This document shows, in pieces, positions 45,801 to 51,800 of a stretch of DNA of 64,000 nucleotides (positions are counted from its first letter, which is position 1; each line of letters begins with the position of its first letter). This DNA comes from Eledone cirrhosa (Eukaryota): the NCBI GenBank assembly GCA_964016885.1, contig OZ024744.1:59334001-59398000 (forward strand), written 5' to 3'. A model generated the notes under the pieces. It searched no databases and was not told the origin of the DNA. It saw nothing but the letters and a program-made list of their open reading frames with translations. A program made the translations under genes and the position numbers.

Positions 45801-48800
45801 GTTTACTTCAAGTTTCAGCAGTATTATTGGCTTCTCAAGAAAGTCTGTTGAGAGAAACTGATAGTATTGATGAAATGTTGAAGAATACAATCACAATATT
45901 AATTATATTGACTGTATAAGTAGTATATGAGTCATTGAGGGCTTGTTTAGTGCGATTATTACACAACTGTATAAAATAAACATTTTTTTCAGACACACAT
46001 GCTAACACATAGGAACATGCACACACACTTCTGTAAATCGCCTCTTTGGTTAGTAAAGCACCTTAACCCTTTAGTGTTCAAAACGGCCAAAACCGGCTGT
46101 AATTATTTCCCCTTTATTTGTTCAAACCAGCCAATAACACCCACACTAAAATATCGTTCTCAAAATAAACAATACCGCCCTCAAAACCTCGTCAATTCGA
46201 GATTACTGTGAGATTAGGCCCTTACTGCGAAAATTAACACTTAATATAGTGAAACAACTTAAAACAACGTGTTTTTTTTTAACATTGAAAGTACAAAAGA
46301 TTTTTTGTTTGTATCAACATGGATTATGAAAGTAGCGATACCAACTTTCATAGTAGCGATACCTACTTTGATAGTAGTGGTACCTACTTTGATAGTAGTG
46401 GTACCTACTTTGATAGTAGTGGTACCTACTTTGATAGTAGTGGTACCTACTTTGATAGTAGTGGTACCTACTTTGATAGTAGCGGTACCTACTTTGATAG
46501 TAGTGGTACCTACTTTGATAGTAGTGGTACCTACTTTGATAGTAGCGATACCTACTTTGATAGTAGCGGTACCTACTTTGATAGTAGTGGTACCTACTTT
46601 CATAGTAGCGATACCTACTTTCATAGTAGCGATACCTACTTTGATAGTAGTGGTACCTACTTTGATAGTAGCGATACCTACTTTGATAGTAGCGGTACCT
46701 ACTTTGATAGTAGTGGTACCTACTTTCATAGTAGCGATACCTACTTTCATAGTAGCGATACCTACTTTGATAGTAGCGGTACCTACTTTGATAGTAGCGG
46801 TACCTACTTTGATAGTAGTGATACCTACTTTGATAGTAGTGGTACCTACTTTGATAGTAGCGATACCTACTTTGATAGTAGCGGTACCTACTTTGATAGT
46901 AGTGGTACCTACTTTGATAGTAGCGATACCTACTTTGATAGTAGTGATACCTACTTTGATAGTAGCGATACCTACTTTGATAGTAGTGGTACCTACTTTG
47001 ATAGTAGCGATACCTACTTTGATAGTAGTGGTACCTACTTTGATAGTAGCGATACCTACTTTGATAGTAGTGATACCTACTTTGATAGTAGCGATACCTA
47101 CTTTGATAGTAGTGGTACCTACTTTGATAGTAGCGATACCTACTTTGATAGTAGCGATACCTACTTTGATAGTAGTGGTACCTACTTTGATAGTAGCGAT
47201 ACCTACTTTGATAGTAGTGATACCTACTTTGATAGTAGTGGTACCTACTTTGATAGTAGTGATACCTACTTTGATAGTAGCGATACCTACTTTGATAGTA
47301 GTGGTACCTACTTTGATAGTAGTGGTACCTACTTTGATAGTAGTGATACCTACTTTGATAGTAGTGATACCTACTTTGATAGTAGTGGTACCTACTTTGA
47401 TAGTAGCGGTACCTACTTTGATAGTAGCGGTACCTACTTTGATAGTAGCGATACCTACTTTGATAGTAGTGGTACCTACTTTGATAGTAGCGATACCTAC
47501 TTTGATAGTAGTGGTACCTACTTTGATAGTAGTGGTACCTACTTTGATAGTAGCGATACCTACTTTGATAGTAGTGATACCTACTTTGATAGTAGCGATA
47601 CCTACTTTGATAGTAGTGGTACCTACTTTGATAGTAGTGGTACCTACTTTGATAGTAGTGGTACCTACTTTGATAGTAGCGATACCTACTTTGATAGTAG
47701 TGATACCTACTTTGATAGTAGCGATACCTACTTTGATAGTAGTGGTACCTACTTTGATAGTAGTGGTACCTACTTTGATAGTAGTGGTACCTACTTTGAT
47801 AGTAGCGATACCTACTTTGATAGTAGTGGTACCTACTTTGATAGTAGTGATACCTACTTTGATAGTAGTGGTACCTACTTTGATAGTAGCGGTACCTACT
47901 TTGATAGTAGTGGTACCAACTTTGATAGTAGTGGTACCTACTTTGATAGTAGTGGTACCTACTTTGATGGAATCCTGTGTCAGAGAAACACTTTGGAACT
48001 TCTGGAGCTCTCACAGCCTCATCCGGCCCTCACAGTTTGGATTTATCCCTAACTCCAGCTGCTGTGATCAGCTTATCGAGTTCCTTGAGGACATCAGCCG
48101 GATCACTGACAGCGGCTCATGGGTGGATGTTGTTTACCTTGACTTTGCTAAGGCTTTTAATTCTGTGCCACACAAAAGACTTATGGCAAAACTCTCTGCA
48201 ATGGGTGTGAGGGATGATCTTTTCGACTGGTTGAAATCCTTCATTCTCAGCCGAAAATAAGTAGTCACGGTTCTAGGACAGCATTCTTCACCATATGAGA
48301 TGTCATCTTGTGTACCACAGGGATCTGTTCTTGGTCCTCTTTTGTTTGTGGCATATATTAATGACATAGATGCCAACTTACAGAATGCCACGGTACTAAA
48401 ATATGCAGATGACATCAAGCTGTACCTTGAAATCAAAAGGACTGATCCTGAAATTTACAACTCTTTCCTACAATCAGACCTGGACACAATGCAGCAATGG
48501 ATCACAGACTGGCAACTGAAGCTGGCTGTGGACAAGTGTACCACCATGCATTTTGGAAGGAAAAATCCAGCGTCCACATACTCCCTCCACAACACTGATA
48601 TCAAAAAGTCCTCTTGTGAATGTGACCTGGGCATTACTGTCAGCAGCGATTTGCGTTGGACAAAGCATGTCTCTAAGATTGTCAAGAAGGCCGAGGGTGT
48701 CTTGGCATCACTCAGCAAGACCTTTGTTAGCCGCTCTCCAGCCATCTATTTAAAACTGTATACAGCTATGGTGCGACCACACTTGGAATTCGCATCATCA

Positions 48801-51800
48801 GTCTGGAACCCCTATCTTGCTCAGAACATTGACCTCCTGGAAATTGTTCAGAGACGTGCAACCAAGCGCATACCCTCCATCAGACACCTACCATACTCTG
48901 AACGCCTTGCTTCCCTGGGCATGGATTCATTGAAGCTCCGACGTCTGGCAATGGACTTGGTGAATACCCACAAAGTTTTTAACCATCTCGCCAATTGCAA
49001 CCCTGAGCGCCTCTTTGATCTCCATGTGTCTAACACACGTGGACATGCCTACAAGATCAGAAAACAGCACAGCTCCCATGACTTTCGTAGACATTTTTTC
49101 ACGCTCAGAGTTGCTGAAGCATGGAACAAACTGCCTGCGTCAATTGTTAGCTGCCAAGACACTCATGCTTCCCGAAATACGCCAAAACTACACCTGATGT
49201 ACCCCTTCCATACACATGCACACATGTGTGTATCATGACTCATGCACTGTTCATTTTACTGATGTTTGTGCATTGCCCTATGTACTGTACATGCACTTTT
49301 TTGATGAGTTGTGGTGCACCTGGGCACTGTACACAATATTTCATTATTGTTATTATTAATATATCATGACTCATACACTGTTCATTTTCCTGACATTTGT
49401 ACATTATTCTATGTACTATACATACACCTTTGATGAGTTGTAGTGCACCTGAGCACTGTACACAATAATTTCATTATTATTATTATTATTATTATAGTAG
49501 AGATACCTACTTTGATAGTAGAGATACCAACATTCATAGTAGCGAGACCGAAGGTTTTACATGCGATAACATTCAGAATAAACAAGAAACATAAGATAAT
49601 ATTAGTGATTTATCTTCAAATGAATCAGATGTTTACATTTCTGAAATTTCGTCCGACGATGATTGTTGTTTTGAAAGTGAAAACGAAGGAGATCTCCAGG
49701 ACGCCATTGAAAATATTACAGCAACGTGGTTGAAAAATACCACACCAATATACGTTCCCGATTTTATTCAAAATACTGGTCCACAACACTGGGTTATTTC
49801 TTTTTGTTTTTGCCACAAACTTTCTTCAAAGTTGTGGCAGAAGAGACTAATCGATATGCCTAACAGATTTCAAATCAAGCAAAACCTGATCCGTTTGGCG
49901 ACTGACTGATACTGTGGAGATGCAAGCGTTTTTACTATAATTATAATGTTTGGTATAAAACAATTTCCAAGAATGTGAAATTACTGGAGCACTGATATAA
50001 GGTTTAATGACCCTTATATATCAAGTATTATGGCAAAAACAAGGTATTTAAAATTAAACCAGTATTTGCACCTGGTTGATACTGGTAGAAATTAATTGAA
50101 TTATGACCCTCTGTATAAAGTTCAACCATTAGTTAAACTGCTATCTGAAAAATTTAAAACAGTATATATACCTGGCAAAAATCGTAATGTTGTTGAAGCT
50201 ATGATTGGGTATAAGGGTAGGGTACATTTGAGACAATATATGCCAGCTAAACCCACCAAATGGGGCATCAAGGTGTGGGAACTCTGAATTAGACACAGGC
50301 TACTGTGCAAACTTTGATGTTTACACAAGAAAGAAACATAATAGAGAGAGAAAAAAATGGATTGGGGTACAATGTTGTGTGGTCTTTGACTGAACCTTTC
50401 CACTCCCAAAAAAGACACATATTTTGAATATTTTTTTTCAGTGCTTCTAGCAGAGGATCTTGTCCTTGTAAATACGTACAGTTGTGGTACAATAATGGGG
50501 AATCGTAAAGGGCTACCCCAAGAAATAAAAGTCACAAAATTTAAAAAGAGAGTAGACATTTTCCAAGTGCAAAGAGGGAACATGTTAGCCACATTGTACA
50601 AAGACAAGCGGCAAATTTTGTTCCTATCTTCTAACCAAGAACCAGGAGTTGGGGCTGAAGGTAAACCTTTAGTCAACCTCTCCTATAATAAATATATGTA
50701 CGAATTACCCAGTTGGACGCCCTGGAAAGAAATGGTGGAGATATATCTTGTGGTTTTTAGTGAATTTAACTATTGTGAATTCTTTTATTGTATTCACTAA
50801 AAGCCACCAGGATCCGCCACCACCAAAGGACTACTGCCACATGAAATTTCTGTAGACGTTGCCTCTCAGCTATGTGGAGGATATACTTCTCACAAACACA
50901 AAGCTGGAAGAAAGTCAAAATTATCTGAGGTGAACAAAGAAAATATTCATTTTCACAAAATGGAGAAAATTAATGGGAGGAAGAAGGTTTGCCGAATGTG
51001 CTCTTTGCAAATGAGAAAAACTGTTAAAGGTTATGCAATTCAAACCACGTTTATGTGTTCTTTTTGCAAAGTGCCATTATGTAAAGGCTGTTTTGGCCAA
51101 TATCATGATAGAAATATTGTCTGACAATATTGAAAAAATATTTTTAAAATATATTGGAATACGTTAGATACAAAAACACCTGAATTCACCTGTGCCACAC
51201 CTGCATCACACCTGTTAATGAACTTATATATTGGGCACATTCTGTTATATAAATCTACTCAGTACATTGAGTAAGAGTACATTGCCAATATTATTTTGAC
51301 TGGTGAAAGAGTTTTATACATTTTTTTCAATGAAAATATTTGCATGAAATGTAGAGACAGACTAAAACCGTGTACTGATTATACCTGCATTTTAAATTAA
51401 TTCACCTGTTCGGAAAAGTGCTAATATTGTTGGAAGTCAACATCTAGGTCATTGTTGGGTATTTTTTGTAATAAATCTAACAGGTAAGTCAGATAAAGTT
51501 TACATTTTTTTTTTATCCATAAAGTCATTACTTTTACATCTGTTAATTAATTTCGTCTGCTCATAAAAGTCAAATTTAACAAAAAAAAAAAAAATCAGGT
51601 AATAATATACAATTATAAATTATTGATATTTAAACATCTACTGACAAAATTTCAAGTCTGCACATAGAAAATTAAGAAAATGACAAACAAATAAAATTGA
51701 TAATCCTCTTGAGTATGATTAACTCAAAATAATTGTTTCTACTTTTGGCACAAGGCCAGCAATTATCCCAGTGTATTACTGGTACTTTATTTTATCGACC

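Follow-up and report, generated by a model that had tools for sequence, protein, structure and literature searches.

Introduction

Minisatellites that arise within transposable elements between short flanking direct repeats follow the model of Haber and Louis (1998), and passages of PMC6947457 give Alu-, B1- and MaLR-derived cases, in which a unit cut from the element is bracketed by direct repeats of 5–10 bp and then multiplies by slippage, conversion or unequal exchange. Human MSY1-type minisatellites, as treated in parts of PMC2599865 (from which we also take the minisatellite unit range of about 9–100 bp), consist of interspersed variant units of that size and turn over by conversion and misaligned exchange. 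In yeast, quasi-palindrome template switching, according to passages of PMC5677150, proceeds by fold-back of the nascent strand and produces clusters of changes by which an inverted repeat becomes perfect, in some cases accompanied by a short duplication. For Drosophila R1, the sections of PMC2718515 on rearrangements describe target-derived duplications of 16–27 nt at non-LTR 5′ junctions, which recur over many insertions and, in those sections, include no long arrays.

Here we analyzed a 21-bp tandem array, split by a LINE, in the window (the whole stretch of 64,000 nucleotides of Eledone cirrhosa DNA to which all positions refer). The array resembles the cases in the cited passages of PMC6947457 in its unit and its direct-repeat bracket, but its source is the start of a piggyBac transposase coding sequence, its first junction perfects an inverted repeat, and a dated LINE splits it. 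The perfected inverted repeat recalls the yeast events as partly covered in PMC5677150, whereas here the switch is read from genomic copies alone and its product grew to a 78-unit array; the interspersed variants recall MSY1 in the cited parts of PMC2599865, whereas the window array is read from one assembly. Unlike the R1 duplications in those sections of PMC2718515, a 5′-only target repeat is seen in no sibling of the window LINE, and the array appears older than the LINE. A literature search, mostly at title level, returned no title on long target arrays made by reverse transcriptase (RT). We hold with good confidence that a pre-existing 21-bp minisatellite, born from one dead piggyBac copy, received a young 5′-truncated CR1-like LINE three units from its 3′ end.

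Results

Array and host element

TRF reported a period of 21 with 78.2 copies, 94% matches and 0% indels at 46327–47968, and the frame count gave 78 full 21-bp units at 46328–47965, in the reading frame opened by the ATG at 46319 and beginning at codon 4 of the piggyBac transposase (Table 1), as the initial annotation had described. Seven unit types occur interspersed and head-to-tail; the array is a single-locus minisatellite derived from a transposable element.

Table 1 Features of the locus (positions in the window).
Feature	Positions	Strand	Remarks
TTAA target site and left terminal repeat (CCCTTTAG)	46063..46074	+	From sequence; family matches start here
Transposase first three codons, decayed piggyBac	46319..46327	+	Aligned with 19 relatives reading MA[CY]ESSDT[DN]FEGFT or near variants
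577-aa frame (DSS[G/D]TYF)n	46319..48052	+	Likely by-product of 3n unit
9-bp perfect inverted repeat, TATGAAAGT / ACTTTCATA, 10-nt loop	46325..46352	.	Spans first duplication junction
644-aa frame from ATG 46326: (PTLIVV[V/I])n, then about 97 RT residues	46326..48260	+	Closed by private stop
Founder unit F (ESSDTNF)	46328..46348	+	Matches single unit of piggyBac family
77 derived 21-bp units (A33, B19, C10, D9, E5, G1)	46349..47965	+	Indel-free; multi-unit block duplications
TGAT microhomology at LINE 5′ junction	47965..47968	+	From sibling alignment
CR1-like LINE, 5′-truncated	47965..49493	+	RT 3′ part, 3′ UTR, (ATT)7 tail at 49473–49493
Three older units 3′ of LINE	49494..49549	+	In register with 5′ array; 49494–49513 (without first G), 49514–49534, 49535–49549 (E-type, 6-nt deletion)
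Remaining transposase, with stops and frameshifts	49550..51124	+	Open for 136 aa at most; remnants of DDE_Tnp_1_7 and zf-Tnp_2
Likely right terminal repeat and TTAA	51885..51897	-	Read from the window copy as near mirror of its left end

The unit corresponds to codons 4–10 of one piggyBac copy, and all 19 aligned piggyBac relatives carry it once, which bears out the proposed derivation from the first transposase codons. In exact-pattern searches, the single-unit pattern had 269 matches; the array pattern had 76, every one at the window locus, and the duplicated-founder pattern had one, again the window locus. The annotation had held that long arrays in other piggyBac copies would speak against a link to RT. 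Exact-pattern search, which diverged arrays could escape, found no other array-bearing copy, a result that does not discriminate, since the one-off birth of a minisatellite predicts the same.

In the piggyBac family, an imperfect 7-bp direct repeat (TGAAAGT...TGAAGGT, exact in two of three relatives checked by pattern) encloses the single unit, which also overlaps an imperfect inverted repeat. Simple slippage would have left ACTTTGAAA at the first junction of the window locus; the sequence found there is ACTTTCATA, which is exactly the reverse complement of TATGAAAGT upstream. This suggests that the nascent strand probably formed a fold-back before pairing again 21 bp upstream, and that the hairpin (fold z −3.5; 3 of 200 shuffles equally good) likely records a fold-back template switch. 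CAT is also the reading in the two other copies that show an apparent double substitution at the hairpin site; in one of them (L145) the upstream arm templates the C only and not the T, which counts against fold-back.

Hallmarks of piggyBac elements are a duplicated TTAA target and terminal repeats beginning CCC, and the window copy begins with TTAA-CCCTTTAG and likely ends in a near mirror (Table 1). Its DDE_Tnp_1_7 core (PF13843, 23 bits, cut-off 22.4) and C-terminal cysteine-rich domain (PF13842, 30.9 bits, cut-off 24) are present in a broken ORF. The locus lies within an intron of a likely JIP3/JIP4-type gene, in the sense orientation of that gene; the host-gene exon, queried alone, had no PDB and no Pfam match, and nothing points to an effect of the array on this gene.

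The LINE

The LINE carries 9 private substitutions in 1506 bp and is young. It is truncated inside the RT, for which the window frame gives an RVT_1 (Pfam) match, and its 3′ UTR contains a 131-bp duplication that its siblings also have. CR1-clade elements end in a short 3′ tandem tail, not poly(A), and are often 5′-truncated. The siblings have tails of the (ATT)n type and differ in their 5′ ends, with APE-type endonuclease matches (PF03372 and PF14529; the APE type is not CR1-specific) in sibling L022 and RVT_1 in sibling L039; from the label of the initial annotation and familiar motifs we take the element to be CR1-like. Short target duplications are described in part of PMC4255032. No long TSD was seen among 37 sibling junctions, except for matches inside repeats, or at the window insertion, where the join is in register with an overlap of AT at most, likewise at sibling L047. 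The 37 junctions sit in varied sequence, and site-specific targeting of the LINE to piggyBac repeats was ruled out.

Some details of the insertion differ from those first annotated. The microhomology at the 5′ junction consists of the 4 nt TGAT rather than TTGAT (29 of 29 siblings read ...AAACTGATGG); three units, not two, follow the (ATT)7 tail; and the HSSET stretch, read as the resumed transposase, is the third of these units, an E-type with a 6-nt deletion.

Order of events

The units on the two sides of the LINE share derived variants: position 3 is T in each of the 77 derived 5′ units and in every one of the three 3′ units, C stands at position 1 in five 5′ units as well as in the last unit on the 3′ side, and T at position 16 is common to 76 of the 5′ units and the first one 3′ of the LINE. 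A C>A variant found in two of the three 3′ units is absent among the 5′ units. In clock tests that were picked after the data had been seen and draw on small counts (9 substitutions in the LINE, 3 among the units 3′ of it), the 3′ units carry 3 substitution events and a deletion versus 0.34 predicted by the LINE clock (P 0.005) and 1.2–1.7 predicted by the piggyBac clock (P 0.12–0.23); the piggyBac host is about four times older than the LINE, given private substitutions of 2.1–2.9% versus 0.6%. Because derived variants flank the LINE on either side and the divergence of the 3′ units is too great for the age of the LINE, the array was most likely multi-unit before the LINE arrived.

The 5′ block contains 1 singleton variant versus 9.7 expected had it been static since the LINE (P 0.0007; assembly polishing could remove singletons and make the block look younger than it is). 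At two variant sites all four combinations occur, and repeated 6- and 9-unit blocks stand above shuffles (8 and 7 of 1000). These counts indicate that the 5′ part turned over after LINE insertion and that its present units postdate the LINE; the recent 5′ expansion put forward in the initial annotation holds up, and fits slippage or unequal exchange after insertion. No LINE-less allele was seen, and so the order of events rests on these internal clocks. Public data (three contig sets from one sample, the single deep one covering the flank, and three RAD-seq runs) gave no coverage at 49440–49526 and almost none to 49555, part of which was passed over as repeat, a gap that carries no weight as evidence, and contigs past unit F were loose ends of paralogs alone.

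Sibling insertions and the cause of expansion

None of the 37 sibling 5′ junctions carried a 5′-only target-derived array, that is, no R1 ISR-like recurrence was found, and in the three siblings embedded in minisatellites the repeat goes on past the LINE tail. One of these (L047) is flanked in register by a 33-bp repeat array, 31 units of which lie on its 5′ side versus 152 on its 3′ side, with variants common to both sides and 5.9 singletons per kb on the short side versus 1.2 on the long side. The other two (L035 and L077) have a longer 5′ side (619 and about 330 bp versus about 100 bp) within degenerate arrays of 77% and 65% matches, and the longer side is 5′ in three of the four array-embedded copies, window included. 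A separate array of 58 units of 56 bp (L132) has no match to the window LINE family in its 10 kb and is as homogeneous as the window array (0.64 versus 0.63 singletons per kb). Derivation of a 34-bp array (L137) from RT coding sequence was considered and rejected, with no tblastn match.

A short array might have come first, with the LINE insertion driving 5′ expansion through repair, chromatin or homologue alignment in heterozygotes; the age of the 5′ units, the 5′ excess in three of four copies and the apparently recent turnover of one side only, at L047 too, are consistent with this. We nevertheless consider it unlikely: L132 and L107 are long and equally homogeneous with no LINE-family match nearby, similar arrays occur in 3 of 36 sampled 10-kb stretches, and the long side at L047 is the 3′ side.

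It is very unlikely that LINE integration itself set off the expansion, with RT or 5′-junction repair slipping repeatedly on a short pre-existing 21-bp repeat to yield tens of units at once that were later reshuffled; the causal link to RT suggested earlier was not sustained, the array being most likely older than the LINE, 5′-only arrays lacking among the 37 sibling junctions and one-sidedness taking the opposite direction at L047. Were it true, non-LTR integration would be a direct source of long minisatellites. A further account, in which RT or 5′-junction repair recopied the target unit at integration and made most of the array in one event, draws on the position of the array at a 5′ junction with 4-nt microhomology and on R1 duplications of the same size as the unit (cited sections of PMC2718515). 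It is highly improbable, however, as no sibling junction shows such an array, the units should bear the LINE's 0.6% private changes (1 versus 9.7 expected), the four-way variant combinations and block duplications require exchange among units, and the diverged 3′ units imply a pre-LINE array.

An array length created by the assembly deserves almost no weight. Long tandem arrays are hard to assemble and no examined public record spans this one, but the variant order is structured and indel-free, and in three public runs from one sample, which may be the assembly source, contig depths over the first units are 26–67 times the unique flank (summed depths 472/181 versus 7, 142/110 versus 3.9 and 99/81 versus 2.8), a ratio that does not equal copy number, with assembly 31-mers recurring 12–30 times there.

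Open reading frames

The initial annotation had noted two stop-free plus-strand frames, one running into RT. The 577-aa ORF and the RT-reaching frame (open from 46263 to 48260) are real, but they carry no signal above chance: at least two open plus frames were obtained with 3405 of 5000 shuffled units, and the four of six frames open in the window array were equalled or exceeded in 2898 of 5000. In the L047 array, open frames reach 1239 and 1251 aa. As for the repeat–RT fusion, the repeat does run in frame into RT, but after about 97 residues the frame ends at a private TAA (48258–48260), upstream of the YADD motif, whereas the RT frame remains open over 400 codons in 25 of 29 siblings. The long open frames are likely a by-product of the repeat, because the unit length is divisible by three, and Pfam matches of the repeat ORFs (DUF4106, HV_Gp350_C-term) would be composition artefacts. 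Production of a functional repeat protein or repeat–RT fusion is extremely unlikely: ATGs at 46319 and 46326 open the two frames and the intronic locus lies in host-gene sense, but the shuffles, the L047 frames and the closure of the RT frame before its catalytic motif speak against it, as does the uniqueness of the locus, since a second copy that might hint at conservation is lacking.

Discussion

A pre-existing minisatellite entered by a LINE would have the following history. The piggyBac family has one unit between imperfect direct repeats, overlapping an imperfect inverted repeat. This unit was probably duplicated by one replication error via fold-back, and its two founder units would persist at opposite ends, F at 46328 and the E-type at 49535. 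Slippage and unequal exchange may then have produced a multi-unit array that collected variants and may have been either short or already long at LINE arrival. The LINE would have entered near the 3′ edge through target-primed reverse transcription of the ordinary kind, with an overlap between its (ATT)n tail and the AT of the unit and with its 5′ end joined via TGAT. Since then, the three severed 3′ units would have remained static, while conversion and duplication of several units at a time presumably went on reshaping the 5′ block. The LINE is most likely a passenger and clock, not the cause, and the whole case is likely ordinary repeat biology.

Under this most likely explanation the significance is small, and it would grow only with a demonstration that LINE integration drives expansions of this kind. 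The locus offers a tidy, datable minisatellite history, with the ancestral unit in hundreds of sister transposons, both founders readable and the LINE as an internal clock, and it may be useful for teaching or as a population marker.

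Structure of the array and its host transposon

The overall anatomy proposed in the initial annotation (array, RT fragment, tail, resumed repeat, transposase) was borne out, with four points corrected (see the table of features). In the reading frame set by the ATG at 46319, the array contains 78 full units (46328-47965) of seven types (A, 33; B, 19; C, 10; D, 9; E, 5; F, 1; G, 1) with five variable positions. Microhomology is present at the 5′ junction with the CR1-like LINE, as TGAT rather than the claimed TTGAT, and three units, instead of two, follow the LINE tail. The repeat frame does run into RT as described; a private stop at 48258 closes it once ~97 RT residues have been read. 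The host, previously called heavily decayed, has roughly four times the age of the LINE, judged by private substitutions (2.1–2.9% vs 0.6%).

Coordinates of the features (window positions unless a locus is named)
Feature	Position	Strand	Remarks
21-bp array (TRF)	46327-47968		78.2 copies, 94% matches, no indels
RT fragment			3′ of array; profile match to RVT_1
LINE 3′ UTR, then (ATT)7 tail			3′ of RT fragment
Three further 21-bp-type units	49494-49549		after (ATT)7 tail
Transposase remainder, broken			3′ of last three units; DDE_Tnp_1_7 and zf-Tnp_2 remnants
piggyBac ends	46063 and 51897		TTAA and CCC-starting termini enclosing whole element
Exon-like stretches flanking piggyBac	~43490-43676 and 52995-53135	+	phase-compatible AG/GT ends
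WD40_2 (PF19056) match	23071-23271	+	same strand as exon-like stretches
Array parts at locus L047	L102 5349-10000 and L103 466-5487		33-bp minisatellite around LINE sibling

Four of the six frames of the array are open; shuffled units yielded at least four open frames in 2898 of 5000 cases and at least two on the + strand in 3405 of 5000, and the array at L047 has open frames of 1239 and 1251 aa. The array-RT fusion frame is without the RT catalytic half, and 25 of 29 LINE siblings (other genomic copies) are open over 400 codons.

The LINE 3′ UTR carries a 131-bp tandem duplication (49231-49492), with an ATT-rich run at the end of both halves; siblings L104 and L105 share it, and its first half is the end point of several others (L086, L094, L095, L096). 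An older relative of the LINE lies in pieces at 44857-45427 (− strand), <1 kb upstream of piggyBac, with 74–83% identity in its RT/UTR parts and 97% over 126 bp at its 3′ end; part of its RT is duplicated internally. The stretches at 51740-51845 (inside the piggyBac right arm) and 44497-44846 are presumably SINE-like.

Contigs from three runs of one sample, which may be the source of the assembly, showed no difference from the left flank of the array over 748 bp. On the first units their depth was 26–67 times that of the flank, a ratio that gives no copy number, and assembly 31-mer multiplicity was 12–30, which argues, only roughly, that many units are present in the reads. Among the public records compared, none extends across the entire array or carries an allele lacking the LINE.

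Origin of the unit and the first duplication

A search with the piggyBac left end returned 2121 candidates; 40 were scored, and 19 besides the window copy were fetched. All 19 carry a single unit followed by EGF, in keeping with the proposed growth of the array from the first transposase codons. The exact single-unit pattern matched 269 times in the genome, whereas all 76 matches of the array pattern, and the one match of the duplicated-founder pattern, lie at the window locus. On its two sides the family unit has TGAAAGT and TGAAGGT, which correspond to the short direct repeat that flanks the unit in the Haber and Louis model (summary in PMC6947457).

The first junction reads ACTTTCATA in the window, against ACTTTGAAA expected from plain slippage, and has its exact reverse complement, TATGAAAGT, immediately upstream; the resulting 9-bp stem has a fold z of −3.5 (3 of 200 shuffles equally good). 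From its sequence, the first unit duplication likely involved a fold-back template switch, and the perfecting of an inverted repeat at this junction resembles fold-back template switching described in yeast (PMC5677150). A pattern for a change at both junction positions, narrowed by its last position, matched seven places: three with a common deletion, one with an apparent one-base deletion and three reading CAT, namely the window copy and two unduplicated piggyBac copies, L146 (CAT matches the upstream arm across 8 bp) and L145 (the arm accounts for the C only). This clustered GAA-to-CAT change without duplication (L146 1499-1524 and L145; G000 C1 and C21) may mark a hotspot of fold-back mutation next to the start of the transposase. 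The identical short deletion directly after the unit in copies L142, L143 and L144 points to a subfamily or to repeated deletion through microhomology.

Order of events

Derived variants are shared across the LINE: T at position 3 occurs on both sides, in every unit other than founder F; C at position 1 marks five units on the 5′ side and the last one on the 3′ side; and T at position 16 marks 76 units 5′ of the LINE and the first unit 3′ of it. Within ~57 bp, the three units 3′ of the LINE hold three substitution events and one 6-nt deletion, against 0.34 substitutions expected by the LINE clock (9 private changes in 1506 bp, against 29 siblings; P = 0.005) and 1.2–1.7 by the piggyBac clock. 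Given these common variants and this excess divergence, a multi-unit array most likely predates LINE insertion.

The 77 derived 5′ units contain one singleton variant, compared with 9.7 expected if static since LINE arrival (P = 0.0007), and 6-unit and 9-unit block repeats exceed shuffles (8 and 7 of 1000). The singleton deficit and repeated blocks suggest turnover of the 5′ block after LINE insertion, through multi-unit duplication. These tests are post hoc and use few events, polishing could hide singletons, and they fit either a short or a long array at LINE insertion.

Tests for a role of reverse transcription

It is very improbable that LINE integration itself made the array, by reiterative copying at the 5′ junction as the initial annotation had offered. 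Two sibling searches gave ~2000 candidates each; the best 29 from each, leaving out L081 (at the position of L024) and L079 (where a further copy lies upstream), comprise 56 loci, 37 with a visible 5′ junction. A 5′-only array occurs at 0 of these 37 junctions. A minisatellite adjoins the LINE at three (L035, L047, L077), the same repeat resuming after the tail each time, and a microsatellite at two. At L047, a close control, the LINE is joined in register inside a 33-bp array whose long side lies 3′ (152 vs 31 units), and the two sides have variants in common. Singletons number 5.9 per kb on the short side vs 1.2 on the long side; the former appears static, the latter subject to recent turnover. 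In L035 and L077 it is the 5′ side that is longer (619 and ~330 bp vs ~100 bp), which runs counter to the reading favoured here, though their arrays are degenerate (77% and 65% matches). Among known RT-linked processes, the nearest is the 16–27-nt insertion site rearrangement of Drosophila R1 (PMC2718515), which recurs across insertions; the window LINE family does not show such recurrence. At L104 (6121-8325 of that locus), next to a LINE sibling, an 84-bp period array looks like tandem C2H2 zinc-finger coding sequence.

Frequency of comparable arrays and genomic context

In a sample of 36 10-kb stretches, chosen at round coordinates of 17 large contigs (359,800 bases), non-simple arrays of period at least 10 occupy 14.3% of bases; six stretches have arrays of at least 50 copies, three of them with at least 93% matches. 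Locus L132 holds an indel-free 56 bp x 58 array (5123-8364) with 0.64 singletons per kb, vs 0.63 in the window array; nothing in its 10 kb matches the LINE family of the window, and the sole RT trace is a distant remnant ~4.8 kb from the array. The short direct repeat GCACTAG is common to both ends of the L132 array, the same birth signature as in the window. At L141, an 84-bp piece of the LINE family's 3′ end lies ~1.8 kb from the array. The remaining measured arrays have 0 to 5.9 singletons per kb, which places the window array among the more homogeneous ones. Long clean arrays, and LINEs within them, are routine in this genome.

Atlas leads for the host gene were a WD40_2 cluster (0.82) and a JIP4-like cluster (0.75), and we take its motifs to be of JIP3/JIP4 type. 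The host, with candidate exons in the two flanking stretches and at the WD40_2 match, is likely, on sequence grounds, a JIP3/JIP4-type gene; piggyBac, array and LINE likely all lie within a single intron of it, in the same orientation as the gene. PMC13282606 lists CR1 and piggyBac families with recent activity in Octopus vulgaris. The window locus is a real, well-preserved, ordinary transposon-born minisatellite split by a young LINE; such minisatellites are already known, and this array adds another example.
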